Below are positions 1,267-45,368 of a stretch of DNA of 52,221 nucleotides, one piece after another. Below the pieces are notes generated by a model that saw only the letters and a list, made by a program, of their open reading frames with translations, made no database searches and had not been told where the DNA came from. Each line of letters starts with the position of its first letter. Position 1 is the first letter of the stretch. Source of the stretch: an uncultured Clostridia bacterium (GTDB lineage Bacteria > Bacillota > Clostridia > Christensenellales > Borkfalkiaceae); assembly GCA_934271725.1 (NCBI GenBank), contig CAKQSC010000001.1, forward strand, positions 1 through 52,221. The letters are read 5' to 3'. The position numbers and the translations under genes are program-made.

Positions 1267-3366
1267 TTAATTGTTGCTATTATATATTCTTACCGTCATT
1301 TTTATATTCCTGCAATACCAGTCGTCTTCCCCTCGCCCACTGGCACTGTATCTTATGACGATTACGCCGTCGCTGAAATTATTTATGAACAAATCGAAAT
1401 CGGCAATAAGAGTATAACCCCACGTCGTATCTTTTACGCCCGAGCCATGTTCCGTTCTCACTTGCCCCAAATGTTGGGTACCCGACGTTGCGGAAGTACT
1501 GAATATAGAAACCCATTGATATCCGTCGTCGCCCTCTTTAACGTCTCCGCTTAAAGTTATGGCAATTTTGTTATAGGTTGACGGAAGAGAGTTAAAGTTC
1601 AAATCCATACAGCATTGATTAAAGAACCAGTTCAACTCGATTTCGTCGTAATCATTGTTCATATAACCGTCGTCGGTAAGAACGCTTTCCACTCTGTTCG
1701 AACGTACTATAACCACGTCCGAACGTATATCACTGCCGTCGGCGACAACCTGCTTTTTATTTACGGGTATTAAAACGTTATTTTCGCCGTCCGTTACCCT
1801 TTCGTATGCGCCTAATTCGATTGCTTCGTGAATTTCCGTCGTACTGTTACCGTAAACTATTTCGTTTACGAAGAACGGATCTCTCGTTTCGAGATTGTGA
1901 ACTATCGGCATATTTGCTTGTGCAAACTTATACGCCTGAATATTGTTTATGTCCGTCCCGAAACTCTTATTATATGTGTTTCCCGCAAACCCTCTGTAAC
2001 TCACTCCTTCGTAGATTCTGCCGATTTGAGAGTTTAAACTCACCATCAAATCGTCGTAAAGGAACAAACTTCCTTCGTCGTTGCCGTTTTCGTTATGACG
2101 AATAGCCTCCAACAGAACCTCTTTGACTTCGTTTGTAGTTACCGTGTAATATGCCCTGTTCTCATCGCCTTCGGCAAACGTTGCGTTAACCATATCGTTA
2201 ATAGCGGAAGCGACACTGCCCGAAACGTTCGTTACGCCGAGCAAAAATATTCCGCGCTGTAAATCTGTTATCTGATCCGCTATTTCTTCACCGGTCATGC
2301 CTATATCCTGCAAATATTCGCCATACGTTCTTAACGCTTGTTTTATAAAATTGATACGCGAATAACCGCCTAATATTTTAAGTTTTATGTCTGAATACTT
2401 TGCATCGTAATTATTGTTCCAACGCGTTACCATATCGTTTTGCACGAATTCGTCTTGTATGCTCACAAAAGCGTCATTTTCACTGTATTTGTTTTCATAA
2501 TTGCCCCTGCCCATAATGGTATCTACAAGAAACTTAATCTTACCGAAGTTGGAGCCGAAATAGGGCGTCCCTATACTGGTTAAAGAAGCGACCAACTCGG
2601 GATACGCCATTGCGAACGCAAGGTTTGTAAGTCCGCCTCTGCTATGCCCTATAAGGTTGACTTTCGGATAAATACCGTTTGACTTTCCTTTTAACGCGTA
2701 TACTATATCTAAAAGCATTTTTGCAAACGCGTAAAAATCTTCTTTATTACTCGCAAAAGCCATGCACTCCGCATCGTATATAACTATTAAATGCTTTGTC
2801 GGATCTAATTGAGATAACGAAAGCGCGCTTGCGTATGAGGAATATGTTTTACCGTTCGTTCCCTGAATCAAATCGACTTTTTTTAAAGTACACCCATATG
2901 TATTTCCCGAAGCGGGCGTATTAGGCGTTGAAGAAATTACCGCGCGAACAACCTGATTACCGATAGCGTTCGACTTACAACGCAATCTTTCTATAAGAGA
3001 GAACTCGTCATAAGCAAAATGCGATACGAGCGGAGTTTCTTTTGATATGTCGTTACTCCAAACCGTAGCGTCGCTACCCATTCCGTGAGTGAGTACCGTT
3101 ATCATCGGGTATGCGGAAAATTGCGCGCCCGCGGGGAAAGCGTTTCTATACGCATAATACGTAGAATCTCCGGTGGGATCCGGTAGCGCCGTATGCGCGC
3201 CCGGTCCTTCCGCCAAACTTTCCGTGCCGACTTCTTCGCCCGTGTTCTGAGAAACTTCCGCATCGGCATAAGCCTTTTTGTTCACGTTTGTAAGAACACA
3301 AACGCTTGTCGCCGTTATAAACAGCGCGAGTAAAATTACAACTACTTTTTTCAATCTTCCCGTCAT
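1267..3366 (-). CDS. Secreted alpha/beta-hydrolase (lipase/esterase-like) with a long C-terminal region of unknown function
   Basis: I prefer the internal ATG at 3366: RBS AAAGGGG, followed by the signal peptide MTGRLKKVVVILLALFITATSVCVLT. The longer ORF start at 3444 falls inside the predicted -35 box. Nucleophile elbow VNLIGHSRGGL (G-x-S-x-G) and oxyanion-type LTHGMGS are present. The roughly 350 aa after the hydrolase core have no family I recognise. Confidence 0.6.
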   Translation of the reverse strand: MTGRLKKVVVILLALFITATSVCVLTNVNKKAYADAEVSQNTGEEVGTESLAEGPGAHTALPDPTGDSTYYAYRNAFPAGAQFSAYPMITVLTHGMGSDATVWSNDISKETPLVSHFAYDEFSLIERLRCKSNAIGNQVVRAVISSTPNTPASGNTYGCTLKKVDLIQGTNGKTYSSYASALSLSQLDPTKHLIVIYDAECMAFASNKEDFYAFAKMLLDIVYALKGKSNGIYPKVNLIGHSRGGLTNLAFAMAYPELVASLTSIGTPYFGSNFGKIKFLVDTIMGRGNYENKYSENDAFVSIQDEFVQNDMVTRWNNNYDAKYSDIKLKILGGYSRINFIKQALRTYGEYLQDIGMTGEEIADQITDLQRGIFLLGVTNVSGSVASAINDMVNATFAEGDENRAYYTVTTNEVKEVLLEAIRHNENGNDEGSLFLYDDLMVSLNSQIGRIYEGVSYRGFAGNTYNKSFGTDINNIQAYKFAQANMPIVHNLETRDPFFVNEIVYGNSTTEIHEAIELGAYERVTDGENNVLIPVNKKQVVADGSDIRSDVVIVRSNRVESVLTDDGYMNNDYDEIELNWFFNQCCMDLNFNSLPSTYNKIAITLSGDVKEGDDGYQWVSIFSTSATSGTQHLGQVRTEHGSGVKDTTWGYTLIADFDLFINNFSDGVIVIRYSASGRGEDDWYCRNIKMTVRIYNSNN

Positions 3367-3415
3367 CACTGCTACCCCTTTGTATTTTTTTCGGGCAATT
3401 TTATTACCCGATTCG

Positions 3416-3444
3416 ATTGTATAACCGAATATGCACGGCGTCAA
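3416..3444 (-). promoter_or_regulatory. Sigma-A-type promoter for the hydrolase gene
   Basis: The minus strand reads TTGACG (3439-3444), a 17-nt spacer, then TACAAT (3416-3421). Tandem CGAATATT motifs lie directly upstream at 3458-3475. Confidence 0.5.
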
Positions 3445-20843: not shown

Positions 20844-23512
20844 TATTGCTCCTGTTGTTCGACCTGATAACTTTCGATGAAATCGCCCACCTTTATGTCG
20901 TTGAACTTTTCAATCGAAATACCGCATTCGAACCCGACGCCCACTTCTTTGACGTCGTCTTTGAATCTCTTTAACTGACGAACGTTACCTTCGCATATCA
21001 TAACGTTGTCGCGGTAAATACGCAGTTTGCTCGCCCTTAATATCTTACCTTCCGTTACGTAGCAACCCGCAACCATACCGACGCCCGTTATATTGAACAC
21101 GTCTCTTACTTCCGCTTTGCCGAGATAAATCTCTTTGAACTTCGGAGCAAGCATACCTTTAAGAGCCTTTTCGACGTCTTCTATCGCTTCGTAAATAACT
21201 CTGTAAAGTTTAATGTCGACTTTACTCTTTTCCGCCATCGCTTTCGCTTTCGCGTCGGGACGGACGTTAAAGCCTATGATAATCGCGTTGGAAGAATCCG
21301 CAAGCATAACGTCCGACTCGTTGATTGCGCCCGCGCCCGCGTGAATGACGTTTACCCTTACTTCGTCGTTGGAAAGTTTAAGCAAGGACTGTTTGACCGC
21401 TTCTACCGAACCCTGAACGTCCGCTTTTACGAGTATGTTGAGAACTTTCAACTGACCTTCCGCGATTTTATTGAATACGTCGTCGAGCGTAACTTTCTGC
21501 ATCGCTTTAAGACGTTCTTCCTTTTCTTTGTTTTTACGTTCTTCGGCAACCATTTTGGTAAGTTTGCCTTCTTCTACCGCGTAAAGTATATCTCCCGCGT
21601 TGGGTACCTCGTCAAGTCCCATAATAGATACGGGAGTAGCGGGACCTGCGGAGTTGAGTTTTCTTCCCTTGTCGTCTACCATCGCCCTTACTTTACCGAC
21701 TACCGTGCCGACTACTATGCTGTTGGTAACTTTAAGAGTACCGTTCTGAACGAGTACCGTAGCGACGGGACCTCTCGACTGATCGAGTTTCGCTTCTATT
21801 ACCACGCCTTTCGCCTTTCTGTTCGGGTTGGCTTTAAGATCCATAACTTCCGCCATTGTAAGAATGTTTTCGAGAAGATTTTCTATACCCTCGCCCGTCT
21901 TTGCGGATACCGGACAGAACATAACGTTTCCGCCCCATTCTTCGGGAACGAGCCCGTGTTCGGTAAGTTGAGTTTTAACCCTGTCTATATTCGCTTCCGG
22001 CTTATCTATCTTGTTTACCGCGACTATTATTTCGACTCCCGCCGCTTTCGCGTGGTTAATCGCTTCTACCGTCTGAGGCATTATGCCGTCGTCCGCCGCG
22101 ACTACTATAATCGCTATATCCGTCGCCTGCGCACCGCGCATTCTCATAGCCGTAAACGCTTCGTGTCCCGGGGTATCGAGGAAAGTTATCACTTTACCGC
22201 CGAGCGTAACCTGATACGCGCCGATGTGTTGCGTGATTCCGCCCGCTTCGCCCGAAGCGACGCTCGTTTTTCTTATTTTGTCGAGAAGGGAGGTTTTACC
22301 GTGGTCTACGTGTCCCATAACCGTAACGACGGGAGGACGGGTAACCAAATCTTTTTCGTCGTCCGCTTTTCCGTCGAACGCTTCCGCCAAAGAATCTTCT
22401 GCGGTTTTGTCCATTTTAAGTTCAAGTTCTATGCCCAAATCGCTTGCGATATACGCCGCCGTATCGTAATCGACGCTGTCGTTTATCGTCTTTAAAATAC
22501 CCTCTTTAAACAACTTTTTGGTAATTTCGATAGCGGAAATACCTAACTTTTCGCTGAGCGTTTTAAGAGGTATTATATCCGTATTGATAACCGCTTTCTC
22601 TATCTTTATAGTCTGCTTGTTTTCTTCTTTCTTGTCCTTTTTGACTCTTAATTTTCTGTAACCCGTCTTGTTTTCGTCGAAATCGGCAACGGAAACCTGA
22701 CCTTTCAAAAGAGCCCTCTTGTTCATCTGCTTTTTATCGTCATAACCTCTGTCGGAGCCTTTTTTCTTGCCCGCGTCTCCTTTTCTTACAGAAGAAGGAG
22801 CAACGTATTCGGGAAGAGGCGCGCTTCCGCCGGAGGGTTTCTTGCCGAATCCCGCTCCGCCCGTCGGTTTACCGAATCCGCCGTTGGGCTTGCCGAATCC
22901 CGCGCCCGCTCTCGGCGGACGGTTGTCGTTTTTGGCTACGTATTCTCTCGGTTTGCCGTTAGCCCTTTCCGACGCGCGTTTTTCGCTTTCCGTTCTGTTA
23001 TCTCTTATAACGTATTCCTTTTTCGGAATGGGGTTGTCGAAAATATTACGCTTTACGACTACGCCGACGGTGTTTTTCTTTTCCTCTTTTTTGGGTTCTT
23101 CCGCAGGCGTCTTAACCGTTTTTATTTCCTCTTCCTTTTTTTCGGGTTCGGTTTTTTCGGCTTTGGGTTGAACCGTTTCCGTATTTTCGGCAGAGGGCTT
23201 TTCCGCCTCCGACGCGCCGGCGGTTTCTACGCTCTCTTCTTTTACGGGCGTTTCCGACTTTTCTTCTTTGCTTACGGGGGCTTGTTCTTCGTTTTTCTCG
23301 ATTACGGGCTTTTCCTCACGGGCGGGTTGTTCTTCTTTAACCTCCGCCTTTGCGAGTTCTTTCGCTTTTTCGTCAAGCGAACCCATAACCTTTTTCATCG
23401 AACCTATCGTGTTTTTCAAATCTTTTAAAAGACCGCCCACGCCGTCTTCGCTTCCGAAAAGTTCGGTTACTCTTTTTATATTTTCGTTTTTAATTTCTTT
23501 CTTTTCCGTCAT
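20843..23512 (-). CDS. infB: Translation initiation factor IF-2
   Basis: 889 aa. Low-complexity K/E/G-rich N-terminus, then the G domain ([24 protein letters not shown]) and C-terminal domains. Confidence 0.97.
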
Positions 23513-23837
23513 TCTTCATGCCTCCGTTTTTGTTTGTGAACGCTCCGCCGAGATTGTTTAAAATGCCTTTGGCGAGATTCTCGTCCGTTATCGCTATTAA
23601 CTTGCAGTTTTTTACGTGAGTATAATTTTCAAGCGGTTCCGCCGTTTCGACAAGCGGACATTTGAGCCGTTCGGCAAGTATTTCCGCTTCGTGCAGACTG
23701 TTGTTGCCCGCTCCGCCGTCTACCATAAGAAGGTTCGCCTTTTTTAAAAGTTTTATCGAATATATTCCCCTTACGAACTTTCTCGATTTCACGGCGAATC
23801 CTATATACGAGATTACTTTACCGTCCCTTACGTCCAT
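23490..23837 (-). CDS. ylxQ: L7Ae-family RNA-binding protein YlxQ
   Basis: Small protein located between ylxR and infB. It shows the L7Ae-like pattern (KSRKFVRG...[12 protein letters not shown]). Confidence 0.7.
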
Positions 23838-25216: not shown

Positions 25217-25678
25217 TCAAAAATCTATATATTTGTTTACTTTTTCGACTTGTTTTTTAATGTCGAAGGTAAGCATTTTGTCGCCCGATATTTTAAGTCT
25301 TATTATCTCGCCGTCGTAATACGCGAGTTCGCCGTCGTATTCTTTTTTGCCTCCGACGCTCTTTTTAAGCCAGACCTCTACCTTTTTGCCGAGGTTCTCT
25401 GCGAAATCTTCTCTTTTAAAAGGTCTGTCAAGCCCTAACGAAGACACGTTAAGCGTATACGGTTCGCCGTAAGTCGGATCGAGTTCGTCGAGAACGGGAT
25501 CTATCGCGTTATGCACGTTTTCGCAATCGTCAAGCGTTATACCGTCGTCCTTGTCGATAAACACCGTAAGACTCGGGTTTTTGCCTTGTTTAAACTCGAT
25601 TTCCGCAAGCCTTACGCCCTGTTCTTCCACAACGGCGCGAAGCGCGTTTTCTATTTCTTCGTTACTTTTTACTTTCAT
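25217..25678 (-). CDS. rimP: Ribosome maturation factor RimP
   Basis: 153 aa. RimP pattern (LEVSSPGLDRP-like: LNVSSLGLDRPF) directly upstream of nusA. Confidence 0.88.
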   Translation of the reverse strand: MKVKSNEEIENALRAVVEEQGVRLAEIEFKQGKNPSLTVFIDKDDGITLDDCENVHNAIDPVLDELDPTYGEPYTLNVSSLGLDRPFKREDFAENLGKKVEVWLKKSVGGKKEYDGELAYYDGEIIRLKISGDKMLTFDIKKQVEKVNKYIDF

Positions 25679-25692
25679 TTTCGACTCCTTAC

Positions 25693-25725
25693 AAAAGAAA
25701 TATGAGAACGGGCACCGTTCTCATA
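25693..25725 (-). terminator. Rho-independent terminator between the PolC-like gene and rimP
   Basis: 11-bp stem TATGAGAACGG (25701-25711) / CCGTTCTCATA (25715-25725), followed by TTTCTTTTGT on the minus strand. Confidence 0.7.
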
Positions 25726-25786
25726 CTAGTCTTTTATCCTACGTTATCGTTATTATAACATAATAAAGAGGTTTTTGCAAGAGTTT

Positions 25787-27331
25787 TTAACTCATTTCGG
25801 GCAAACATTTTTTCTTCTTTATAAGTTTAATGAAAATCTGCGCCGTGGCGTAAGCGTCCGCAAGGGCTCTGTGGTGATGAAACTCTATGCCGAACTTGTC
25901 CGCAACCGAATTGAGTTTATAGTTCCCGAGCCCCTTTACGACTTCCTGCGCCAACGGGTAGGTATCTATGATCTTGTTGTCGAAATAGTACCCCTCCGGC
26001 GAAGATTGAGATTCGAGCATTTTCATATCGAACCCGAGTATGTTATGTCCTACGAGTATGGCGTTTTCGGCAAACTTATAAAAATCGCCTATAACTTTAT
26101 CGAACGTAGGTTGTCCGTCGACCATTTCCTGCGTTATGCCCGTAAGTTCGATATTCTTTGCCGACAGTTTCATTTTCGGATCGATAAGCACCTGAAACAG
26201 TTCCGTTATCTCCCCTTTATGAATCCTTACCGCGCCGATTTCCGTAATCTTATCCGAACCGACTTCGAGTCCGCTCGTTTCGAGGTCGACGACGACGAAT
26301 TCGTTGCTCACCAGACAGTCGGGCAACGGTTCTTTTTCGGTAAGCATATCTATTTCTTCCACAGTTTCGTCTTTGAACGGGAACGCCACCGTATAAGTTT
26401 CGGGCGCTCTCTTTTTCGCTTTTCTTTGCGGAACGAAATCTTCGGGGAATACGCAACGGTTTATTTTGTCGAGTTTAAGACTTAACTTGTCGTTGTAATA
26501 ATCCTGCGTGCAACTCGCTATTATCGCGTCGCCCACAACAAGCCCCTTTACCCGTTCGAGCGTGTTCGGCTTTGAAAAGTACATCCCCGTGGCGTAACCC
26601 GTTTTATCCGTAAAATCTATTATAAAGAACGGCTTGCCCGTTTTGGTTTGTCTTTCGATAATTCGCGTTATCTTTCCGCACAGCGTAAAGGAACCGGCAA
26701 GACTTGCGTCTTCTATATACGTCGCTATATCCGTCGGGTTTTTCGTTTCGTCCATCGGAACGACGTTTTGAACCCTTATGCACCGTCTTTCGATTTTTTC
26801 CGTTTGCGTAACGGGTTTTGTTTCGAGAACGGAAACGTCTATTTCCCCCTCTTTAAGTTCGCACGAGCCGACGAAATTGTCGCAGAATTGCGTTTGAAGA
26901 TACGCCGTTACTTTATCGAGTATGCCGTTGCTTTCTATGTACTTTAAATTGTCCTTTAATACCTTTAAAGAGTATCCTACCATTCCGTCGTGAAAAGTCG
27001 CCGTTACGTCTCCTTTCTCCATAAGATAACCTATGGACGTGTATTCGCGTTTCAAAAAATCCGTAATCGCCTTTTCGACGCTTTCCTTGTCGGCTACCAC
27101 CTTTATAATATCCACACCGACGGATACAAAACACTCGGGGGTTATTTTATCGCACTTTTCGCGTATTTTTTCCACAACGTCGTCGGGAACGGGCTTGTCG
27201 CATATGAACCTGAACGTAACGGATTTTTCCGTACGTTTTATCACCACGTTTTGCAGTCTTGCCCTCGCGACGCGCGGATCCGTCGCCCGTACGTTCTGCG
27301 CAAACGCTTTCATTTCTTCCATTTTAAGCAT
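25787..27331 (-). CDS. PolC-like N-terminal/OB-fold + DEDDh 3'-5' exonuclease protein with no PHP or polymerase domains
   Basis: The exonuclease motifs are intact: VVVDLETSGL, LVGHNILGFDMKML, HHRALADAYAT. The preceding OB-like segment GKITRIIERQTKTGKPFFIIDFTDKTGYATGMYF parallels the PolC OB fold. The gene sits at the ispG-[polC]-rimP syntenic position. Start could be 27331, 27322 or 27313 (three in-frame ATGs overlapping the ispG 3' end). Confidence 0.75.
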   Translation of the reverse strand: MLKMEEMKAFAQNVRATDPRVARARLQNVVIKRTEKSVTFRFICDKPVPDDVVEKIREKCDKITPECFVSVGVDIIKVVADKESVEKAITDFLKREYTSIGYLMEKGDVTATFHDGMVGYSLKVLKDNLKYIESNGILDKVTAYLQTQFCDNFVGSCELKEGEIDVSVLETKPVTQTEKIERRCIRVQNVVPMDETKNPTDIATYIEDASLAGSFTLCGKITRIIERQTKTGKPFFIIDFTDKTGYATGMYFSKPNTLERVKGLVVGDAIIASCTQDYYNDKLSLKLDKINRCVFPEDFVPQRKAKKRAPETYTVAFPFKDETVEEIDMLTEKEPLPDCLVSNEFVVVDLETSGLEVGSDKITEIGAVRIHKGEITELFQVLIDPKMKLSAKNIELTGITQEMVDGQPTFDKVIGDFYKFAENAILVGHNILGFDMKMLESQSSPEGYYFDNKIIDTYPLAQEVVKGLGNYKLNSVADKFGIEFHHHRALADAYATAQIFIKLIKKKKCLPEMS

Positions 27332-28359
27332 TTTTCAATCTCCCCGAAAAAGATTTCTTCCGCGTCCTCGAAAGAGCACTCCGCATACGCTTCGCCTTTT
27401 TTGAAAATAACCGCTTTGTCCTTTCCCCCGGCGATGCCTATATCCGCGGACTTGCCCTCGCCCACGCCGTTGACTACGCAACCCATAACCGCTACGTTAA
27501 GCGGTTTGTTCTCCTTTTTCGTTTTCTCGCAAACTTTTTTCGCAAACGCCATACAATCCCAGTTGCATCTTCCGCAAGTGGGGCAGGAAATAACGTTTAC
27601 GAAGTTTTTGTCTATACCTACGCTTCGCAAAATATTTTTGGCTACCGCCACTTCTTCTACGGGATCCTCCGACAAGGAAACCCTTAACGTGTCGCCTATT
27701 CCGTCGAGAAGAAGCGCGCCTATGCCGACCGCGTTTTTGATTTTGCCGAGTTCGCCCCCGCCGGCTTCCGTAACGCCGATATGTAACGGATAATCGCAAA
27801 CCTTGCTCAACGCCCTGTAACTTTCCGTCATAAGTCTTACGTCGGAAGCCTTTACCGACACGACTATATCGTACACGCCGTGTTTTTCGAGCGTCTTTAC
27901 GTTGTTCATCGCGCTCCGTACAAGCGACTCGACGGAAACGCCGTATTTTTTCAGCAATTCCTTTTCTATACTGCCCGAATTAGCCCCTACTCTTACGGGT
28001 ATTTTATGCGCTTTAAGGCAATCCGCAACGGCGGTTATCTCTTTTTCTCCCCCTATGTTGCCGGGATTTATGCGCAGTTTGTCCGCACCGTTCTCTACGG
28101 CGAGTATGCCTAACCGATAATCGAAATGCACGTCCGCGACGAGAGGTATTTTAGTAGCGTCTTTGATTTTTTTTATCGACGACGCGTCGGCTTCGTCGGC
28201 AACGCAAAACCGAACTATTTCGCACCCCGCGTCCTCTAAACGCTTTATCTGATTTATGCAGTTTTCCGTATCTTTGGGGGCGAAAGTCGTCATAGACTGA
28301 ATAAGCGGTTTTTCCCCTCCGCCGATATACAGATTTCCTATCTTTACCTTTTTGCTCAT
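27310..28359 (-). CDS. ispG: 4-hydroxy-3-methylbut-2-en-1-yl diphosphate synthase (flavodoxin)
   Basis: 349 aa. Motif IGGGEKPLIQSMT and the C-terminal Fe-S cysteines (ISCPTCGRC...; ...VMGCVVNG). Confidence 0.93.
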   Translation of the reverse strand: MSKKVKIGNLYIGGGEKPLIQSMTTFAPKDTENCINQIKRLEDAGCEIVRFCVADEADASSIKKIKDATKIPLVADVHFDYRLGILAVENGADKLRINPGNIGGEKEITAVADCLKAHKIPVRVGANSGSIEKELLKKYGVSVESLVRSAMNNVKTLEKHGVYDIVVSVKASDVRLMTESYRALSKVCDYPLHIGVTEAGGGELGKIKNAVGIGALLLDGIGDTLRVSLSEDPVEEVAVAKNILRSVGIDKNFVNVISCPTCGRCNWDCMAFAKKVCEKTKKENKPLNVAVMGCVVNGVGEGKSADIGIAGGKDKAVIFKKGEAYAECSFEDAEEIFFGEIEKCLKWKK

Positions 28360-30473: not shown

Positions 30474-31817
30474 TTATTTAACAAGACCGCTTGCATTGTA
30501 TCTCGTGTTGTTGTTTACGAGAACGTACGTATAAGAGTTACCCTGATTTACGTTAATCGTTGCGGTAACCGCGCAGTCGCCCGAAATAACGGGTACGTTG
30601 ATTGCCTGCGTCATCGTCGCAAGTCCCGCCGTAAGATAATAAGCGTTCTTCACGTAAGGAACTTTAACGGTAGCCGTAAAGGGTTTGCTTATGGTAGCGT
30701 CGGTGAACAATTCGTCGTCGTTATATCTCGCGCCGGTAATCGTTCCCGCAACCTTACAAGTCGTAAGAGTTACGTTTGCGATTTGTCCCGTCTGACCAAC
30801 GATACCCGCGGAACGTCTGTATGCCGAAACGTTCGCATTTACATCGCAGTTTACGAAAGAAACGGTATCACCGCTCGTCTTATCCGCATTGCCTCTCGCC
30901 ATACCTACTACACCGCCTACGTCGTCGTAGCCCGCAACGGAACCGGTAACGGTAATGTTTTTGAACGTAGAATTACCCCAAGAATAGCCCGCAACCGCGC
31001 CTACCGCGTCGCCTACGATAACGATGTCTTCGTTGTTATTGTTCTTTACCGCTATTCTCGAATCTTCGATATCTACAACAAGTTTTATGTCGTGAATGTT
31101 CGCGCCGTATACGCAACCGAACAAACCGTAGTTGATTTCCATAGTACCTTTAACGGTAGTCGTGTTGGTACCCGTACTGTCCGTAACGTTGGAGTAAACC
31201 AAACCTTTGTTGGTCAAGCCTTTAATCGTATGTCCGTTTCCGTCGAACTCACCCTTGAACCACAAATCTTTGTTTTCCGCTTTACGATAAGTGTTGGAAA
31301 TAGGAATCCACGTCGTACCCGTCAAATCGATGTCCTCATCGAGTCTTACGACGGTGTTGGGCGAAATGTATTCCGCAACGCCCGCGTTTACGTTATCTCT
31401 GAAATTGTTCAAATCCGTAGCGTTTTTGATAACAAAAGTCTTAACGCCTACTACTTCGTACTGGAAGGTCGCGTAAACGGTGTCGTAACTTATGGTTGCC
31501 GTTCTTCTTGCTTCGTTTGATTCGGAAGAAAGGTCGAAGTTCGCTACGTCAAATTCGTACGTAGTGCCGTCCGCTTCGCCTACCAAAGTGCTAGCGTCCT
31601 TAAACGTAAGTTCAAGCGGTGTTGCCTTGCCGTCTTTCGTAAGAACGACTTTCATAAACGTTTCACCCGTTAAGTCCTCGTTAACGTGATATACTATTCT
31701 CGGGTAACGCGATATTCTCAAACTGTCCGTTGTATCGAATAACGAACAACCTACAAAACCGCAAACCGCAATCGCAAGCGTTAAAATTAACGCTATAAAG
31801 CCTACTTTTCTTTTCAT
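30474..31817 (-). CDS. Surface lipoprotein with GLUG-like / parallel beta-helix repeats
   Basis: Signal peptide plus lipobox (LTLAIAVCGFVGC|S). Motif FKGEFDGNGHTIKGL followed by repeated G-x-hydrophobic-G segments (YGLFGCVYG, VGAVAGYSWG, VGGVVGMARG, SAGIVGQTG), typical of GLUG-motif adhesin-like proteins. RBS AGGAGA, 33 nt after the pilin-like gene. Confidence 0.6.
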   Translation of the reverse strand: MKRKVGFIALILTLAIAVCGFVGCSLFDTTDSLRISRYPRIVYHVNEDLTGETFMKVVLTKDGKATPLELTFKDASTLVGEADGTTYEFDVANFDLSSESNEARRTATISYDTVYATFQYEVVGVKTFVIKNATDLNNFRDNVNAGVAEYISPNTVVRLDEDIDLTGTTWIPISNTYRKAENKDLWFKGEFDGNGHTIKGLTNKGLVYSNVTDSTGTNTTTVKGTMEINYGLFGCVYGANIHDIKLVVDIEDSRIAVKNNNNEDIVIVGDAVGAVAGYSWGNSTFKNITVTGSVAGYDDVGGVVGMARGNADKTSGDTVSFVNCDVNANVSAYRRSAGIVGQTGQIANVTLTTCKVAGTITGARYNDDELFTDATISKPFTATVKVPYVKNAYYLTAGLATMTQAINVPVISGDCAVTATINVNQGNSYTYVLVNNNTRYNASGLVK

Positions 31818-31850: not shown

Positions 31851-33572
31851 TTATACCGTTTTGTTTGTCGGGAAAATGTTTAATTGATTAGAACGATATA
31901 TTTCCTTTTTAATTATGTTTTCACCGTCTTTAAGATTCATATATATTTTAACGCCTACAACCTTTATAACGGGGTTTTCGTCCGTTACTTCGTATTGTTC
32001 GCCGTCTTTAATAGTTTTCGCTTCTTCGCCGGATGCGACGAAGTCTGCCGCCGTTCCTTCCGAACCGCCTACCTGACTGCTTTTGAACTTACCCGTGATA
32101 TACGTGATTTCGTACGAGAATTCGTTTCCGACGTTCACGTCGTATTCCTTTCCCGCCCAATTTATTTTCGTTCCCGTATTCGCAATACCGTAATCGGGCA
32201 AATCGACGGACAACGTTCTTGCCGTTTTGTCTGTCGTAACCGTTTTAAGATCCGTCATTATGGTAACGTCGGACAATTTGTAAGTGTTCAACTTTTTGTC
32301 GACTACTACCATTGTAAACTTCATACCGTTGCCGATAAGTTCGGAACGAATGGTCGCGCTCGCCACCTTGTTTACGAAAGCGTCCGCGTTAAGTTGAATG
32401 GTCGGAACAAGAAACTCTCTTCCTATTCCCGTAATCGTCTGACCTTTACCGTTATAGTAACCTTTACCGTCAAGCAAAACTTCCGTTTCGATTATTCCGT
32501 CCGCGCCGTTGGTTATACCGTCCGCCGTATATGATATGCCCTTGCCGTCCGCCATGGTGCCGTACTCGAATCCCATTTTCTGATATCCGTAAATAACGGT
32601 ATACGCACCCGTCGGGAAAGGTTGACAACTCGTGTTGCCTTTGCTTACCTTATTGACAACGTCTATATTCGTCAAAGACGCTTTGTTCGTGTTGCAAAAA
32701 TCAAGAAACGCAATGCTCGTAGCAACGACTTTGACAGATTCGTTTGCACCCGAATCGGTCGTTTTTGACGAAACCACGCCGTGGAAAGAATCTTCGTTAC
32801 ACGCTATAACCGTAGCGGGAATTACTATTTCGTTTTTCGCTTTAAGCGTGCTTCCCGATGTTCTTGACGGAACACCCGTAAGACCGGGAACGACGTATAC
32901 GTAAGCCTCGCCGTCCGTTTTGCCTTTCCAACCGTCGTTGGTTATGTATGCGCAATTTTCTACCGAAAACTTTGCGAAATGGTTTTTCGCCGCCGCGACT
33001 ACCTTGCCGTCCGTACTTATCGATTCTATTCTCGATTTTATAACGTCTACCGTACCCGATTCTATCGCGTCGATAACCTGCGTCAAAGAGTTTTTGCCTT
33101 TTTCTATATAACGAATGTTTTTATTAGCGAAAAACGCTCTCGGTTCCAACGTGTCGGAATTATCTTCCGCTTCGTCGGCATACGCAACGACGATACCCGC
33201 GCTTGCGGTTGCGCCGTCCGACAGAGTACCGTTATTTTTAAGAACGTCGTCCGTCTTTTTAAAGTATACTCTGTTTTCCGCTCTGTTGTACCAGTAAGAA
33301 TACCCTTTGGCAGGGCTTTTTAAGCTGTATCCTGCCGACTCCGCCATATCTTCGAGTTCGTAGTCTTCGTAATACGTTCTGTCGTTGAATGCCGCTTCCG
33401 TGCCGAGTACGGTGGAAATCCTTAAAGCCGTAGTCGTGCCTTTCTGAATATTCGCTTTCTTTATGACGTTAGTAAGCGTCGGAACCAGAATAGCGGCAAG
33501 CACCGCGATGACCGCGATTACGATTGCAAGTTCGACGAGAGTAAACCCCCGTCTTTTCTTTTTCTGCATCAT
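31851..33572 (-). CDS. Large (573-aa) protein with a type IV prepilin-type N-terminal cleavage/methylation signal
   Basis: N-terminus MMQKKKRRG|FTLVELAIVIAVIAVLAAILVP is a canonical class III signal (Gly-1, Phe+1, Glu+5). RBS is AAAGGAGA. The remaining roughly 530 aa have no family I recognise. Confidence 0.75.
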   Translation of the reverse strand: MMQKKKRRGFTLVELAIVIAVIAVLAAILVPTLTNVIKKANIQKGTTTALRISTVLGTEAAFNDRTYYEDYELEDMAESAGYSLKSPAKGYSYWYNRAENRVYFKKTDDVLKNNGTLSDGATASAGIVVAYADEAEDNSDTLEPRAFFANKNIRYIEKGKNSLTQVIDAIESGTVDVIKSRIESISTDGKVVAAAKNHFAKFSVENCAYITNDGWKGKTDGEAYVYVVPGLTGVPSRTSGSTLKAKNEIVIPATVIACNEDSFHGVVSSKTTDSGANESVKVVATSIAFLDFCNTNKASLTNIDVVNKVSKGNTSCQPFPTGAYTVIYGYQKMGFEYGTMADGKGISYTADGITNGADGIIETEVLLDGKGYYNGKGQTITGIGREFLVPTIQLNADAFVNKVASATIRSELIGNGMKFTMVVVDKKLNTYKLSDVTIMTDLKTVTTDKTARTLSVDLPDYGIANTGTKINWAGKEYDVNVGNEFSYEITYITGKFKSSQVGGSEGTAADFVASGEEAKTIKDGEQYEVTDENPVIKVVGVKIYMNLKDGENIIKKEIYRSNQLNIFPTNKTV

Positions 33573-33862: not shown

Positions 33863-35956
33863 TCAGTTCAACTTTTCAAGAAGTTTAAGGTCTATTCCCT
33901 TTTCGCCTATCTTGATTATTTCAACTTTTACCTTATCGCCTATGCTCAACACTTCGTCTACGCTGTTGATTCTCTTTTCGCTCATCTTGGAAATGTGAAT
34001 CATACCGTCTTTTCCGGGAGCGAGTTCGCAGAACGCGCCTACCTTGGGCAGTATTCTTACTACTTCGCTTATGAACATATCGCCGACTTCGGGATCTTTC
34101 GCAATGGAAAGAACAATCGCTTTCGCTCTTTCGGCTGCGTCTACCGAGCCGACAGACGCTATCGATACCATTCCGTCGTCTTCGATGTTAATCTTCGCGC
34201 CCGTTTCTTCGATTATCTTGTTGATGACTTTTCCGCCGCTGCCGATAACTTCTCTTATCTTGTCGGGGTTAATCATAAAACTGATAATTCTGGGAGCATA
34301 TTTGGACAATTCCTTGTTGGGTTCGGGTATGCAGGCAAGCATCTTCTTTAAAATCTGTTGTCTGCCTACGTTCGCCTGAGCGATTGCCTGACGCAAAATA
34401 GCCTCGTCTATACCTTTAATCTTTATGTCCATCTGTATAGCCGTGATGCCCTTTTCGGTACCCGCTACCTTAAAGTCCATATCGCCGAAGAAATCTTCAA
34501 GCCCCTGAATGTCCGTAAGAACGGAAACTTTTCCGCTTTCGACGTCCTTGATAAGTCCCATAGCGATGCCCGCAACGGGACGAGTGATGGGAACGCCCGC
34601 GTCCATAAGAGCAAGGGTGGAACCGCAAACGCTCGCCTGAGAAGTCGAACCGTTGGAACTCAACACTTCGCTTACCACTCTTATCGCGTACGGGAACTCT
34701 TCTATGCTCGGAATAACCGGTTCGAGAGCGCGTTCCGCAAGCGCGCCGTGTCCTATCTCTCTGCGTCCGGGGCTTTTAAGAGGTCTTGCCTCGCCGGAAG
34801 CGTAACCGGGCATGTTATATTGATGCATATATCTCTTTTCGTCCTCGTTGTCGAGTCCTTCGAGTCTTTGCGCTTCGTCCATAGTGCCGAGAGTACAGGT
34901 CGTCAATACCTGCGTTTGTCCTCTCGTGAAAACGCCCGTGCCGTGAACTCTCGGAAGTACCCCGTGTTCGCACCATATAGGTCTTATTTCCGTAAGTTTT
35001 CTTCCGTCCGGACGAATACCGTCTTTCGTGATTTTTGCTCTTACCTTTTCTTTCGTAAGGTAATATAATGCGTCTTTGATTTCTCTTTCCATATCGGGAT
35101 ATATATCCGCAAAATGGTTGAGCGTGTCTTCCGTAACTTTATCTTCCGCAACCTGACGGTCGTGTCTGTCGTAGTTTTCAAGCGCGTCGTCAAGCATTGC
35201 TCCCGCATAGTCTCTTACCGCTTTGTCGATTTCTTCGGGAACGTGATAGAGAGCCATTTCCTTTTTGGGCTTGCCTATCGCTTTGACTATCTCTTCCTGA
35301 AAAGCGCATTGTTTTTTGATTTCTTCGTGTCCGAACAAAATTGCACCGACCATTTCGTCGTCGCTTATTTCTTTCGCGCCCGCTTCAACCATCATTATTG
35401 CGTCTTTCGTGCCGGCGAGGTTAAGCGCAAGCGTGCTTTTTTCTTTTTGTTTAAGGTCGGGGTTGATAACGTATTCGCCGTCGACAATCGCTACTACTAC
35501 GCTTCCCGTAGGCCCCGCAAAGGGTATGTCCGAAATGGAAAGCGCGATTGAACTGCCTAACATTGCAAGCGGTTCGGGAGCGACGTCGGGATCAACCGAC
35601 AAAGCCGTCGCGATAACGGATACGTCGTTGAAAAGTCCTTTCGGGAAAAGGGGACGGAGCGGTCTGTCGATAAGTCTTGACGTTAAAATCGCCTTGTCGC
35701 TCGCTCTACCTTCTCTCTTTTTAAACCCGCCGGGTATTTTGCCGATTGCGTACATTTTTTCTTCGTAGTCTACGCCGAGCGGGAAGTAGTCCATTCCCGG
35801 ACGGGGTTCCGCGCCCATGGTAACGTTTACCATAACCGCCGTTTCGCCGCATCTTACGACGCAGGATCCGTTCGTTTGTCCGCAGTATTTGCCCGTTTCG
35901 ATAACGACTTCTCTTCCGCCGATGACGGTCTTAAACTCTCTGTAAGTGTCTGTCAT
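33863..35956 (-). CDS. pnp: Polyribonucleotide nucleotidyltransferase (PNPase)
   Basis: 697 aa. Two RNase PH domains, a KH domain and an S1 domain, with a typical N-terminus (...IGGREVVIETGKYCGQTNGS). Confidence 0.97.
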   Translation of the reverse strand: MTDTYREFKTVIGGREVVIETGKYCGQTNGSCVVRCGETAVMVNVTMGAEPRPGMDYFPLGVDYEEKMYAIGKIPGGFKKREGRASDKAILTSRLIDRPLRPLFPKGLFNDVSVIATALSVDPDVAPEPLAMLGSSIALSISDIPFAGPTGSVVVAIVDGEYVINPDLKQKEKSTLALNLAGTKDAIMMVEAGAKEISDDEMVGAILFGHEEIKKQCAFQEEIVKAIGKPKKEMALYHVPEEIDKAVRDYAGAMLDDALENYDRHDRQVAEDKVTEDTLNHFADIYPDMEREIKDALYYLTKEKVRAKITKDGIRPDGRKLTEIRPIWCEHGVLPRVHGTGVFTRGQTQVLTTCTLGTMDEAQRLEGLDNEDEKRYMHQYNMPGYASGEARPLKSPGRREIGHGALAERALEPVIPSIEEFPYAIRVVSEVLSSNGSTSQASVCGSTLALMDAGVPITRPVAGIAMGLIKDVESGKVSVLTDIQGLEDFFGDMDFKVAGTEKGITAIQMDIKIKGIDEAILRQAIAQANVGRQQILKKMLACIPEPNKELSKYAPRIISFMINPDKIREVIGSGGKVINKIIEETGAKINIEDDGMVSIASVGSVDAAERAKAIVLSIAKDPEVGDMFISEVVRILPKVGAFCELAPGKDGMIHISKMSEKRINSVDEVLSIGDKVKVEIIKIGEKGIDLKLLEKLN

Positions 35957-36096
35957 TTTTCTTTTCTCCTATTTCTCTCTTTGTTCTATTAGTTACTTAC
36001 GGCAACCTACCGTAAGAGTTATTATCTTTTTATTCCGTCCGTTACAAACGACCGCCGTTAAACGGAACCCTTTTGCAACCGATTTTAACCCTTATC

Positions 36097-36132
36097 AAAA
36101 AAATAAGGCGACAGCCGTTAAATTGTCGCCTT
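36097..36132 (-). terminator. Rho-independent terminator/attenuator between rpsO and pnp
   Basis: Stem AAGGCGACA (36105-36113) / TGTCGCCTT (36124-36132), followed by ATTTTTTT on the minus strand. Confidence 0.7.
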
Positions 36133-36145
36133 AAAAAAACCGTTA

Positions 36146-36409
36146 TTATTTTCTCAGATTCAAAGCAGCGACAACGGCTCTGTAACGCTCGATATCGACT
36201 TCTTTCAGATAAGCGAGCAAATGCTTTCTGTCGCCGACCATCATCATAAGTCCGCGTCTGCTGTGGTTGTCGTTCTTGTTCGCTTTAAGATGTTCCGTCA
36301 AGTGGTTGATTCTTTCCGTCAAAAGAGCGATTTGCACTTCCGCGCAACCCGTATCGCCGGGGTGTCTGCCGAATTTTTCGATAATTTCCTGTTTTCTTGC
36401 TTTATCCAT
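36146..36409 (-). CDS. rpsO: 30S ribosomal protein S15
   Basis: 87 aa. Contains [37 protein letters not shown]. Confidence 0.97.
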
Positions 36410-43037: not shown

Positions 43038-43988
43038 TTAATTTGAAGATTCGCTTCCCGCGATTACCTTCGGCGTATAATTGTTTACCGCGTTTACTCC
43101 GCCTTTGCCGAGATAAGCGTATAACGTAGGCGTAACGGTCAACACGACAGCCGTCGAAACCACGACGCCGACAATCGCCGAAAGAAGAACGTACCTGACG
43201 GGCGTTGCCGAGAAGATAACCCCCGCGACGAGAATTATTATCGTAGCAACCGCAAGAATAACCGTTTTAAGCAACGTGGCGGAAACAGCCGAGTTCGCTA
43301 TGACTATTCTCTTCGCGCCCTTATAATCCGCGCTTCTTACCAACGCTTTTACTTTGTTTACGTAATACAGCGAAACTATTCCCGAGAACACGAAAGCAAA
43401 TGCTATCGCCGAGATATAGTTGACTCCCACGGGAATGCGGAATATCGCCGTCAAACATATAGTGAGATATACCGAAAGAAGAATAGACGCGACGAGAGTC
43501 AACGCTCTTCTCCATTTATATCTTATCAACGCGTATACGAACAAAACTACCAAAGACACGCCGATAGCGAGCAACGCCCATAACGCCGAGGTGTTGTTTG
43601 CCAAGCCTTTCGCTTCCGTAAAGTTTACGGGAATGTCTTTGTCGAGATATTTCTCATAAGAACCGAGAGCCGTTTTAAGTCCTTCCTTGACTTCATCTTC
43701 GGTCATTTTGGTTTTGACTTCGTAAATGAGCGACTGTTCGTCGATAACTTTTACGGAAACCACTTTAACGCCGTTGTCGTCAAGCCACTTTTCAGTGTCT
43801 TTTTTAATATCTTCCGCGGCGATACTCGAAGTAACGTTTACCGCAAGTTGTTTATAGCCTTTATAACTGCTGTCCTTGTTAAGCCCCGCTACGCCCCATA
43901 CCACGGAACCCGCGACTATGAGAACGAGAACGGCAACAAGCCATATTTTCATTTTTTCTACTATTTGCAAACCGGAAATCTTATTCAT
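43038..43988 (-). CDS. secF: Protein translocase subunit SecF (divergent)
   Basis: N-terminal TM, a periplasmic-type loop and a C-terminal cluster of 5 TM segments. It overlaps the secD stop codon and sits at the syntenic position (yajC-secD-secF-recJ-relA). Confidence 0.65.
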   Translation of the reverse strand: MNKISGLQIVEKMKIWLVAVLVLIVAGSVVWGVAGLNKDSSYKGYKQLAVNVTSSIAAEDIKKDTEKWLDDNGVKVVSVKVIDEQSLIYEVKTKMTEDEVKEGLKTALGSYEKYLDKDIPVNFTEAKGLANNTSALWALLAIGVSLVVLFVYALIRYKWRRALTLVASILLSVYLTICLTAIFRIPVGVNYISAIAFAFVFSGIVSLYYVNKVKALVRSADYKGAKRIVIANSAVSATLLKTVILAVATIIILVAGVIFSATPVRYVLLSAIVGVVVSTAVVLTVTPTLYAYLGKGGVNAVNNYTPKVIAGSESSN

Positions 43989-45285
43989 TTACTTCGCCCT
44001 CCTCTCTTTTGAGATTAAAGAACTTTTCGCTGTCGGTAAGGGGAAGTTCGAGTTTAACCAAAAGTCTTAACAAAAGTTGGTTTACGAGAGCCGTTACTAT
44101 AACGCCGATACCGAACGTCATTGCAAAACTCTTTAACGAACCCGTGCAGATGAAAAGCATAAGCAACGCGACTATTCCGCAAAGAACGGTAATATCGAGC
44201 ATAAGGAAAGTCGCTTTCCCGTAAGCGTGCTTGTAAGACGCCCTTAAAGTCTTTCCTTTCGCGTATTCTTTTCTTACTTCGTGAAGCACCGTAACGACGC
44301 CTTCCACCGCAAGAACCGCAACGGCTATAAGTCCGAGCAATCCGCCCGTGGAAATGCTTATTCCGGGGATTACCGCAATGAAGAACAAGGTCAAAAGCAC
44401 GGAAGCGAGTACGGACAAGTCGCCCGCTATCGCAAACCCTCTGTACATAACCGCTATCGCAACCATAATAACAGCAACCGCAACGACGAGAGAAATTACC
44501 GTAGCGTTGATTTTGCCGTATACGGGCGTAACCGTTTTAGCGTCGCTTACGTTATATTCGACCGCAAGACCGCCCGTAGATATTTCGAGAGCGTAACCTT
44601 TGAATCTCGCAACTGTTTCTTCGCTTGTGTCGTTGTTCGCAAGCGTTATCACCGAACCGTCGTCTTCGTTTATGCAACTCTTGATGTCAGAGCCGAATAT
44701 GTCCGTTTCGCCGATATAGATGTGAACTTCTATACTGCTGTTTTTGCTTATAGCGTCCGCAAGCAGTTTTTCGCCTTGTTTGGTGAGATTGACGGTTATT
44801 ATAGAATAACCTTCCGATCTCGAAAACTTTGCGTTTTTGATTTGTTCCTGTTCGAGAATTATATTGCCGTCTTTATCCTTGAAAGTAACTTCGCCGTAAG
44901 CGGTAACGACGGAAATGTCGTTGGCTATCGTTGATTTTGCGTCCGCAAGAATGGAAATGCTGTCGTCTTTGTAAGCGGTTACGATCGCGCTGTCGTAGCC
45001 GAGAACGTTAAGTCTGTTTCTTATTACCTTAGCCATTTCGTCGACGTTGGTGTCTTCCTCGACGTAAGCCGTTTTATCGACAAGCGTCAATTCGTAATAA
45101 ACGCCTTTGGAAAACTCCGCCGTAAGTTTGTTGTCGCCGATTTTTTTCGTTATCGAAACAAAATCGTACGTGCCGTTTTTATAACCGGCGACGGGAAAAC
45201 TCGCAAAAGTTATAAAAGCAAGTAATGCTATCAGAACGGTTATTACCGAAATGAGCACAATAGAGAGTACCTTTTTCTTTTTCAT
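43981..45285 (-). CDS. secD: Protein translocase subunit SecD (divergent)
   Basis: I prefer the ATG at 45285 (GGAGG 5 nt upstream; starts MKKKKVLSIV...) over the TTG at 45297. The C-terminal TM block GLLGLIAVAVLAVEGVVTVLHEVRKEYAKGKTL...SFAMTFGIGV parallels the SecD signature region. Confidence 0.65.
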   Translation of the reverse strand: MKKKKVLSIVLISVITVLIALLAFITFASFPVAGYKNGTYDFVSITKKIGDNKLTAEFSKGVYYELTLVDKTAYVEEDTNVDEMAKVIRNRLNVLGYDSAIVTAYKDDSISILADAKSTIANDISVVTAYGEVTFKDKDGNIILEQEQIKNAKFSRSEGYSIITVNLTKQGEKLLADAISKNSSIEVHIYIGETDIFGSDIKSCINEDDGSVITLANNDTSEETVARFKGYALEISTGGLAVEYNVSDAKTVTPVYGKINATVISLVVAVAVIMVAIAVMYRGFAIAGDLSVLASVLLTLFFIAVIPGISISTGGLLGLIAVAVLAVEGVVTVLHEVRKEYAKGKTLRASYKHAYGKATFLMLDITVLCGIVALLMLFICTGSLKSFAMTFGIGVIVTALVNQLLLRLLVKLELPLTDSEKFFNLKREEGEVNE

Positions 45286-45368
45286 CTCTGCCTCCAAAAG
45301 TTGAAAGTATGACGACCGCCGACGGTAAACGCGTTTACCGCCGACAATATATACTTATAGACTTATTT

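Follow-up and report, generated by a model that had tools for sequence, protein, structure and literature searches.

A polymerase-less exonuclease family, very probably derived from PolC, at the polC position of uncultured Clostridia

Among the Firmicutes, PolC counts as the hallmark replicative polymerase. In an uncultured Clostridia bacterium (Christensenellales; Borkfalkiaceae), of which a stretch of 52,221 nucleotides was analysed (assembly GCA_934271725.1, contig CAKQSC010000001.1, positions 1 to 52,221; “the window”), the ancestral polC slot directly upstream of rimP is occupied by an open reading frame (ORF) for a protein of 514 amino acids (aa), termed mini-PolC in the following. It carries the accessory front end of PolC, comprising a two-module N-terminal domain (NTD), an OB fold and an intact DEDDh 3'-5' exonuclease domain, and is devoid of the PHP and polymerase domains. 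Mini-PolC stands for a discrete protein family (about 500-540 aa) that is known from uncultured gut Clostridia only and is without a functional name; this polymerase-less, PolC-derived architecture forms a family of its own, which is previously undescribed as far as the literature found is concerned. We consider the identity of mini-PolC and its origin from PolC as very probable. The complete reading, according to which mini-PolC is a PolC-derived stand-alone protein that arose by in-place loss of the PHP and polymerase parts and acts as a trans-exonuclease of the replisome, is favoured on balance, and its functional part, the association with the replisome, is put forward tentatively.

Domain architecture and relationship to PolC

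Mini-PolC is encoded by a clean ORF at 25787..27331 on the minus strand (ATG start, 514 aa plus stop codon in the ORF list of the window), exactly at the coordinates proposed in an earlier reading of the DNA sequence alone (the “sequence-only reading”), including the distance of 108 nt to rimP. An AlphaFold2 model of the protein, based on a 49-sequence alignment and of high overall confidence (mean predicted local distance difference test score, pLDDT, of 89), comprises two consecutive alpha-beta-beta-alpha-beta modules at residues 4-77 and 82-159, a disordered loop at 165-177, an OB barrel at 184-294, an ordered linker of 50 residues, and an exonuclease fold at 344-507.

The exonuclease domain is the most readily recognized part. 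RNase_T (PF00929) matches residues 346-500 with E 6e-36 (124.9 bits versus a cutoff of 24), and TIGR00573 likewise scores above its cutoff (103.5 versus 71.5 bits). The motifs Exo I (DxE), Exo II (NxxxD) and Exo III (HxxxxD) are all present, and the DEDDh residues D349, E351, D435, H487 and D492, together with N430, are invariant in 52/52 family sequences. These motifs and profile matches place mini-PolC within the superfamily of DnaQ-like DEDDh 3'-5' exonucleases. Among the exonucleases compared, its exonuclease is closest to that of PolC. The top NCBIfam model is a PolC equivalog, with the match being confined to the exonuclease segment and staying far below the cutoff (162.9 and 143.3 bits for the two PolC equivalogs versus cutoffs of 873 and 1043); sequence searches of PDB are headed by the T. 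maritima PolC exonuclease (2P1J) and the E. faecium PolC (9QPC); and Foldseek ranks full-length PolC (9qpc_A) first, with E 4e-19 over 388 columns, compared to about 170 columns for exonuclease-only matches. Since the PolC NTD is unresolved in 9QPC (PMC12592400), the extra columns correspond to the OB fold. The assignment of an intact, PolC-like proofreading exonuclease in the sequence-only reading is corroborated by these matches.

Other DEDDh proteins are more distant. DinG, PRK06807/PRK07883-type and Cas-associated DEDDh proteins possess a related exonuclease domain (NCBIfam 126-145 bits; PADLOC DEDDh) but carry helicase, GIY-YIG or Cas2 partners, never the PolC NTD and OB fold. None of them reaches its family cutoff on mini-PolC, which falls into neither the DinG nor any other curated equivalog; the DinG-type model NF005981 attains 125.8 bits versus a cutoff of 789 and 8zef_A aligns over 166 columns, i.e., with the exonuclease part only. 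An origin from phages or defence systems was considered and rejected, as PHROGs, PADLOC and BFVD match the exonuclease domain alone.

For the OB fold, PF01336 remains below its cutoff in the window sequence (E 1.6e-5) but is significant family-wide, 48/49 members being matched at E values down to 5e-13. Profile-profile comparison (hhalign) of the family OB fold with the clostridial PolC OB fold yields E 3e-11, compared with 0.06-0.8 for cross-domain control pairs, which substantiates the PolC-like OB fold that had been suspected around residues 215-300.

The N-terminal region, the least secure claim of the sequence-only reading, requires profiles for its recognition; single-sequence searches of Pfam, NCBIfam and PDB with residues 1-215 return no match. 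The reference NTDs were the first 400 residues of 14 PolCs taken from the supplement of Timinskas et al. (PMC3919608); the signal was marginal with 8 PolC N-termini (P about 1e-3) and became significant with 14 PolCs and a 52-sequence family profile. The whole-protein profile alignment is collinear, with family residues 19-285 aligning to PolC residues 21-315 at a probability of 96.8%. After removal of the OB fold, family NTD residues 7-152 align to PolC NTD residues 6-154 over 137 columns with a score of 40.9 and E 4e-6 (hhalign), while 40 column-shuffled NTD controls score at most 15.7. Subdomain I aligns to PolC N-terminus I with E 2e-6 (hhalign), and PF14480 (PolC N-terminus I) gives weak matches in the same register in a few family members. 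Mini-PolC NTD and OB fold are homologous to those of PolC, in the case of subdomain II by collinearity and fold alone; the proposition that residues 1-330 are unrelated to PolC does not hold.

In terms of structure, an NTD-only model (pLDDT 84) retrieves generic tandem modules in Foldseek, such as dual-BON proteins, the PrgH ring-building motif, the uS3 KH-II domain and archaeal NusA KH pairs. There is no PolC-specific match among them because the 9QPC structure does not cover this domain. In a published prediction (PMC3919608, PMC12926913), the PolC NTD (Pfam PF14480/PF11490) is composed of two subdomains that are KH-II-like and akin to tau domain V; the modelled mini-PolC fold fits this prediction, without being specific for it.

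PolC, as represented by the E. faecium (9QPC) and G. kaustophilus (3F2B) enzymes, contains the homologous NTD, OB fold and DEDDh exonuclease in the same N-to-C order and is encoded in the same slot; however, it is about 1430-1450 aa long versus 514 aa, and it possesses a PHP domain with the HHDHEHCDH metal site, in which the exonuclease is inserted between PHP strands 3 and 4, whereas mini-PolC has no PHP domain. Furthermore, the palm, thumb and fingers of the polymerase core, the (HhH)2 motif and the C-terminal QLSLF clamp motif of PolC are absent from the 514-aa ORF. Mini-PolC is, therefore, not a PolC, and, lacking palm, thumb and fingers, it cannot polymerise DNA. The absence of these domains, as originally proposed, is supported by the lack of any PHP or polymerase Pfam match in mini-PolC and by the linker between the OB fold and the exonuclease, which has no similarity to the N-terminal part of the PolC PHP domain and no HxH motif; a PHP remnant in this linker was rejected on these grounds. 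Downstream of the exonuclease domain, the protein terminates after 7 residues (7-14 in the family); given this short C-terminus and rimP as the next gene, a split-intein or read-through continuation was dismissed as well.

The linker itself is conserved at P296, F299, P310, Y313, P318 and P337 and harbours a short motif in its lowest-pLDDT, most flexible part, the phenylalanine of which is kept in 50/52 sequences; the form Qxx[LMVIF]F occurs in 8/52 sequences, among them all three distant relatives. The motif is similar to the clamp-binding consensus QL[SD]LF/QxxLF (PMC12309361) and to DnaE3-type variants in the Timinskas supplement (PMC3919608). The motif is, hence, a candidate beta-clamp-binding or partner-binding peptide, to be taken as a lead.

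The polC slot and the mini-PolC family

The flanking genes of mini-PolC were assigned by Pfam and encode, in order, an M16 peptidase, GcpE/IspG, mini-PolC itself, RimP, NusA and YlxR, followed by an unmatched small ORF at the ylxQ position, IF2, RbfA, a DHH phosphoesterase and TruB. In the branch of the query, the mini-PolC gene lies directly 3' of ispG, between ispG and rimP, in the lineages examined. In the sister branch, the order is rpsB-tsf-frr-uppS-cdsA-rseP-mini-PolC-rimP-nusA-ylxR-infB-rbfA-truB. This matches the gene order around polC on the B. subtilis map, where polC precedes rimP. The rimP gene of B. subtilis is BSU16590 (PMC3814617). Mini-PolC sits in the ancestral polC slot upstream of rimP-nusA, and this slot is kept in every lineage examined, in agreement with the synteny first noticed in the window. 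As the longest ORF of the 52-kb window has 889 aa (infB), neither polC nor dnaE is present within it.

The gene is real and recurrent. The exact protein of the window recurs in independent ENA and Logan assemblies with its neighbours unchanged, and for an orthologue with 45% identity, again located between ispG and rimP, the index of the assembly collection gives 212 blocks. The first branch of the family comprises more than 120 listed full-length relatives (504-519 aa, 38-79% identity), and a second, deeper branch comprises at least 120 proteins of the same architecture (512-531 aa) that are 27-36% identical to the query. Across both branches, more than 240 full-length 90%-clusters were listed, with the family spanning 493-542 aa and 27-79% identity in hundreds of independent assemblies. 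This recurrence excludes an assembly deletion, which the sequence-only reading had put forward as a possible refutation.

Compared with the 79% identical orthologue, the ratio of nonsynonymous to synonymous substitution rates (dN/dS) amounts to 0.11 for the whole protein, with values of 0.06 for the OB fold and 0.09 for the exonuclease domain; for the NTD, the corresponding ratio of nonsynonymous to synonymous differences per site (pN/pS) is 0.26, with the synonymous sites being saturated. Mini-PolC is under purifying selection and is neither a pseudogene nor an assembly artefact.

An exhaustive HMMER search of 1.84 billion representatives with the NTD profile retrieved 199 proteins at E ≤ 1e-3. 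The best 150 of these are all 542 aa or shorter, the complete ones having 493-542 aa and the others being contig-end fragments; no protein of PolC length is found among these 150. Among the matches listed, all named members derive from metagenome-assembled genomes (MAGs) labelled Clostridia, Clostridiales or Eubacteriales, in which they are annotated as “ribonuclease H-like domain-containing protein”, “exonuclease domain-containing protein”, “3'-5' exoribonuclease” or “hypothetical”. No cultured carrier and no complete genome with the gene was encountered among the 240 homologues listed and in a cluster look-up, which returned MAGs only. In the full-text literature, no description of a stand-alone PolC-derived exonuclease was found, and the family is not described in the C-family polymerase surveys checked; these surveys missed it because fragments without a polymerase active site were discarded or complete cultured genomes only were included. 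The simplest history is that a resident polC was reduced in place before the two branches split.

Feature map and genomic surroundings

The features of mini-PolC and its immediate neighbourhood are compiled in Table 1.

Table 1. Coordinates of mini-PolC, its domains and adjacent elements in the window.
Feature	Position	Strand	Basis or remark
Mini-PolC, complete ORF (514 aa + stop)	25787..27331	-	identical protein in independent ENA and Logan assemblies
NTD subdomain I (residues 1-80), alpha-beta-beta-alpha-beta	27092..27331	-	AlphaFold2 pLDDT 90-95; hhalign E 2e-6; PF14480
NTD subdomain II (residues 81-160), second alpha-beta-beta-alpha-beta	26852..27091	-	AlphaFold2; collinear full-NTD alignment only
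Disordered inter-domain loop (residues 161-183)	26783..26851	-	pLDDT <50 at 165-177
OB fold (residues 184-295), PolC-type position and sequence	26447..26782	-	PF01336, hhalign, Foldseek; dN/dS 0.06
Ordered OB-exonuclease linker (residues 296-343), replaces PolC PHP strands 1-3	26303..26446	-	conserved residues
Short motif [VIQE]-x-[ST]-[VML]-F-[DE] (residues 326-331; EIDMLT here)	26339..26356	-	family alignment
DEDDh 3'-5' exonuclease domain (residues 344-507)	25811..26302	-	PF00929, TIGR00573, 2p1j and 9qpc matches
Promoter-like TTGCAA-17-TATAAT with extended TG, past mini-PolC stop	25752..25780	-	-10-like box in all lineages
Hairpin and T-rich tract just upstream of rimP ribosome-binding site	25689..25727	-	stem conserved across lineages
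rimP, first gene of rimP-nusA-ylxR-infB cluster	25217..25678	-	Pfam
ispG (GcpE), upstream neighbour	27310..28359	-	Pfam; 22-nt overlap with mini-PolC start

Between mini-PolC and rimP, the sequence-only reading had placed a strong terminator at 25693-25725. A hairpin with a 13-bp stem and a T-run is indeed present in this region (25727..25699), and the promoter-like box lies between it and the mini-PolC stop codon; the element is, however, more likely a conserved part of the rimP leader. In every lineage examined, the gap between mini-PolC and rimP has the same layout, i.e., a -10-like box, 25-35 nt, a strong hairpin, a U-rich tract and the rimP ribosome-binding site (window 25689-25780, minus strand; L001 11546-11676, L003 11516-11671, L004 7588-7775, L005 11540-11665, L010 11561-11681, L011 11561-11686, L012 11561-11677). 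The conserved stem reads GAGAACGG..CCGTTCTC, with GAGAGTGG..CCACTCTC in the sister branch, and has no match in Rfam. Given that this layout is conserved upstream of rimP, the hairpin is probably, as judged from the nucleotide pattern, a leader or attenuator of the rimP-nusA operon; it may also terminate the upstream (mini-PolC) transcript.

All plausible genes of the window (1-52221) are located on the minus strand, as had been noticed before, and the GC skew is negative in 26/26 bins. Such extreme co-orientation together with a uniform GC skew is a pattern usually tied to PolC-containing genomes (PMC3814617), and would deserve attention in case the polymerase portion of PolC is truly absent. 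Otherwise, the remaining window resembles the ordinary chromosome of a sporulating Firmicute, with genes for SpoIVA, Der, RelA, RecJ and Tgt.

In the canonical Firmicute order, rpsO-pnp follows truB-ribF, unlike in the window, where rpsO-pnp (33863-35956 and about 36000-36300; via L008 923-3469) lies upstream of the ispG-mini-PolC-rimP cluster. The region between rpsO-pnp and ispG encodes a 573-aa protein whose N-terminus bears a pilin-type N_methyl signal (31851-33572), a 447-aa protein for which no Pfam family is on record (30474-31817, via L008), a polysaccharide deacetylase and the M16 peptidase. The product of ylxQ is an L7Ae-like protein; the 115-aa ORF at the ylxQ position between ylxR and infB (23490-23837, minus strand) has no Pfam match at E ≤ 1e-5, and there is likewise none on record for the small ylxQ-position ORFs of L005, L010, L011 and L012. 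A 438-aa ORF (43981-45297, minus strand) is without any Pfam family, and the sole match of a 725-aa ORF (1267-3444, minus strand) is a short alpha/beta-hydrolase stretch at residues 255-293.

In two carrier lineages, the mini-PolC proteins of which are each about 41-45% identical to that of the window, a phage-like cluster is located directly upstream of ispG (L005/L006/L007 1235-8870; L012 1487-8874). It contains Terminase_6N/6C, a P22-type portal, an SU10-type major capsid protein and DUF7934 in identical order and may be a conserved prophage remnant, a gene transfer agent-like element or an integration hot spot.

Proposed role, alternative explanations and implications

All modules retained in mini-PolC are nucleic-acid- or replisome-interaction modules of PolC and all of them are constrained; from this, we infer an ssDNA-directed (single-stranded DNA) 3'-5' exonuclease acting at or near the replication fork. 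Very probably, the PHP and polymerase parts were lost in situ at the ancestral polC locus, while the two-module NTD, the OB fold and the DEDDh exonuclease were kept and are now joined by a new ordered linker with a conserved short peptide. In PolC, the NTD presumably tethers the enzyme to the clamp loader or replisome. Correspondingly, the mini-PolC NTD, possibly assisted by the linker motif on the beta clamp, might bring the protein to the fork; the OB fold would bind ssDNA or frayed 3' ends, and the exonuclease would remove 3' nucleotides. There, mini-PolC could act in trans on 3' ends, proofreading or trimming them on behalf of a C-family polymerase whose gene lies elsewhere, with DnaE1 or an exonuclease-less or normal PolC being the candidate partners.

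Several known systems provide a frame for this proposal. The E. coli-type epsilon subunit (DnaQ) is also a stand-alone DEDDh proofreader and a plausible functional analogue in trans for a DnaE-type polymerase; it uses a short clamp-binding peptide adjoining its exonuclease domain. However, epsilon has neither NTD nor OB fold, its C-terminal tail binds the alpha PHP domain, whereas mini-PolC has no such tail, and its sequence similarity to mini-PolC is far lower than that of the PolC exonuclease. The model dnaQ_proteo (TIGR01406 / PRK05711) yields 76.2 bits versus a cutoff of 222.7, so that mini-PolC is not epsilon proper, and the evolutionary origins of the two are independent. In B. subtilis, the PolC exonuclease can serve DnaE3 in trans (PMC12926913), and clostridial DnaE1 retains a conserved putative epsilon-binding surface, with some Clostridia possessing DnaE1 only (PMC3919608). 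The complementary variant is also on record: 6% of PolCs are without the exonuclease insert, all of them clostridial or from Negativicutes save for one extra copy in Thermotogae, and that of Acidaminococcus fermentans, for instance, keeps NTD, OB fold, PHP and polymerase but loses the exonuclease (PMC3919608). These enzymes show that the exonuclease and polymerase functions of PolC can uncouple in this part of the tree. In the Bacteroidetes Exo-DnaE1 fusions (PMC3919608), the link between a DEDDh proofreader and a C-family polymerase was likewise rewired independently; however, they are the result of fusion, not fission, and have no PolC NTD or OB fold upstream of the exonuclease.

A number of observations weigh against the proposed reading. 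On the structural side, subdomain II of the NTD aligned alone to PolC N-terminus II gives P 0.02, i.e., no independent sequence signal, and no solved PolC NTD was found for fold comparison. In the linker motif, the canonical glutamine is rare at position 1 and the window copy reads EIDML; hence, the motif may be structural rather than clamp-binding. With regard to function, the ±10 kb around mini-PolC contain no Pol III alpha gene in any of six lineages, and the “3'-5' exoribonuclease” label of some relatives would be compatible with RNA instead of DNA as the substrate. Finally, the sequence-only reading had suggested, as a speculative role, trans-proofreading for an exonuclease-less DnaE-type polymerase, but clostridial DnaE1 is generally not exonuclease-less; it usually comes with its own intact PHP proofreader (PMC3919608, PMC12926913), and an extra proofreader is, therefore, not obviously required.

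The alternative that survives best, albeit rather unlikely in our view, is that mini-PolC is a paralogue for repair or RNA processing, i.e., a truncated copy acting as a general ssDNA/RNA 3'-5' exonuclease in a manner likened to ExoX, the DinG exonuclease domain or YhaM, with a full polC being present elsewhere and no role at the fork. The co-orientation and GC skew described above would be expected from such a genome (PMC3814617), stand-alone DnaQ homologues average more than three per proteome and are mostly non-replicative (PMC12926913), and the OB fold shows a weak profile match to YhaM/Cbf1 (E 0.008). The neighbouring RNA and ribosome genes also appear to favour an RNA-related role, but this neighbourhood is explained by ancestry, not function. 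Moreover, mini-PolC fills the polC slot itself in two deep branches, so that a retained polC would need prior duplication or relocation, and its PolC-specific NTD, for which no repair role is known, is still constrained (pN/pS 0.26).

It is improbable that mini-PolC is one part of a split PolC whose PHP-polymerase half is encoded elsewhere, as a PolC devoid of the exonuclease alone or of NTD, OB fold and exonuclease, with the halves assembling non-covalently into a PolC-like holoenzyme. While the ordered conserved linker and its peptide motif could serve as a docking element, and the exonuclease-less PolCs of Clostridia and Negativicutes would be conceivable counterparts (PMC3919608), the published ones, such as that of Acidaminococcus, retain their own NTD and OB fold. 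No cultured carrier of an exonuclease-less PolC was found among the best 120 of each family search, no adjacent polymerase gene was found, and the C-terminus is without an intein or fusion signature.

Still more doubtful is that the NTD-OB-exonuclease protein is the pre-fusion ancestor of PolC instead of its derivative. Its architecture is collinear with the PolC front end and Timinskas et al. assign Clostridia a position close to the root in the evolution of C-family polymerases (PMC3919608); yet, the family is narrowly spread (199 representative clusters, with the named members being uncultured Clostridia), whereas PolC spans Firmicutes, Tenericutes, Fusobacteria and Thermotogae. In addition, the gene occupies the slot of full polC in other genomes, and a route from such a module to PolC presupposes the splitting of a PHP domain around the exonuclease, which is less parsimonious than a deletion. 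A generic DnaQ-family exonuclease with an unrelated N-terminus, to which the blank single-sequence Pfam and PDB searches for residues 1-215 had pointed, or a deletion or pseudogene of polC can practically be dismissed in view of the profile-profile homology of NTD and OB fold to PolC, the same length in hundreds of independent assemblies from two deep branches, the invariant catalytic residues and a dN/dS of 0.11.

Returning to the derivation of mini-PolC from PolC, the conservation of the non-polymerase modules in the polC slot shows that, by themselves, they serve a function on which selection can act. They offer a handle on the role of the enigmatic PolC NTD and OB fold, on whether proofreading can be transferred in trans in Clostridia, and on how polymerase and proofreader become separate subunits. 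The working of the clostridial PolC-DnaE1 system and the rise of DnaE1-only systems are open questions of the field (PMC3919608). One specific, and in our estimation unlikely, version of events is that the carriers have lost the PolC polymerase, replicate with DnaE1 alone and keep the front end as a replisome-tethered proofreading subunit. If true, an epsilon-like subunit would have been invented independently, from parts of PolC, and a living intermediate would exist between replication systems with PolC and DnaE1 and those with DnaE1 only. In carriers without a PolC polymerase, the target of PolC-directed antibiotics, such as ibezapolstat, would be missing; such bacteria would be intrinsically insensitive to the PolC-targeting antibiotics in clinical development (PMC12592400), and this would bear on the microbiome-sparing claims made for these drugs.

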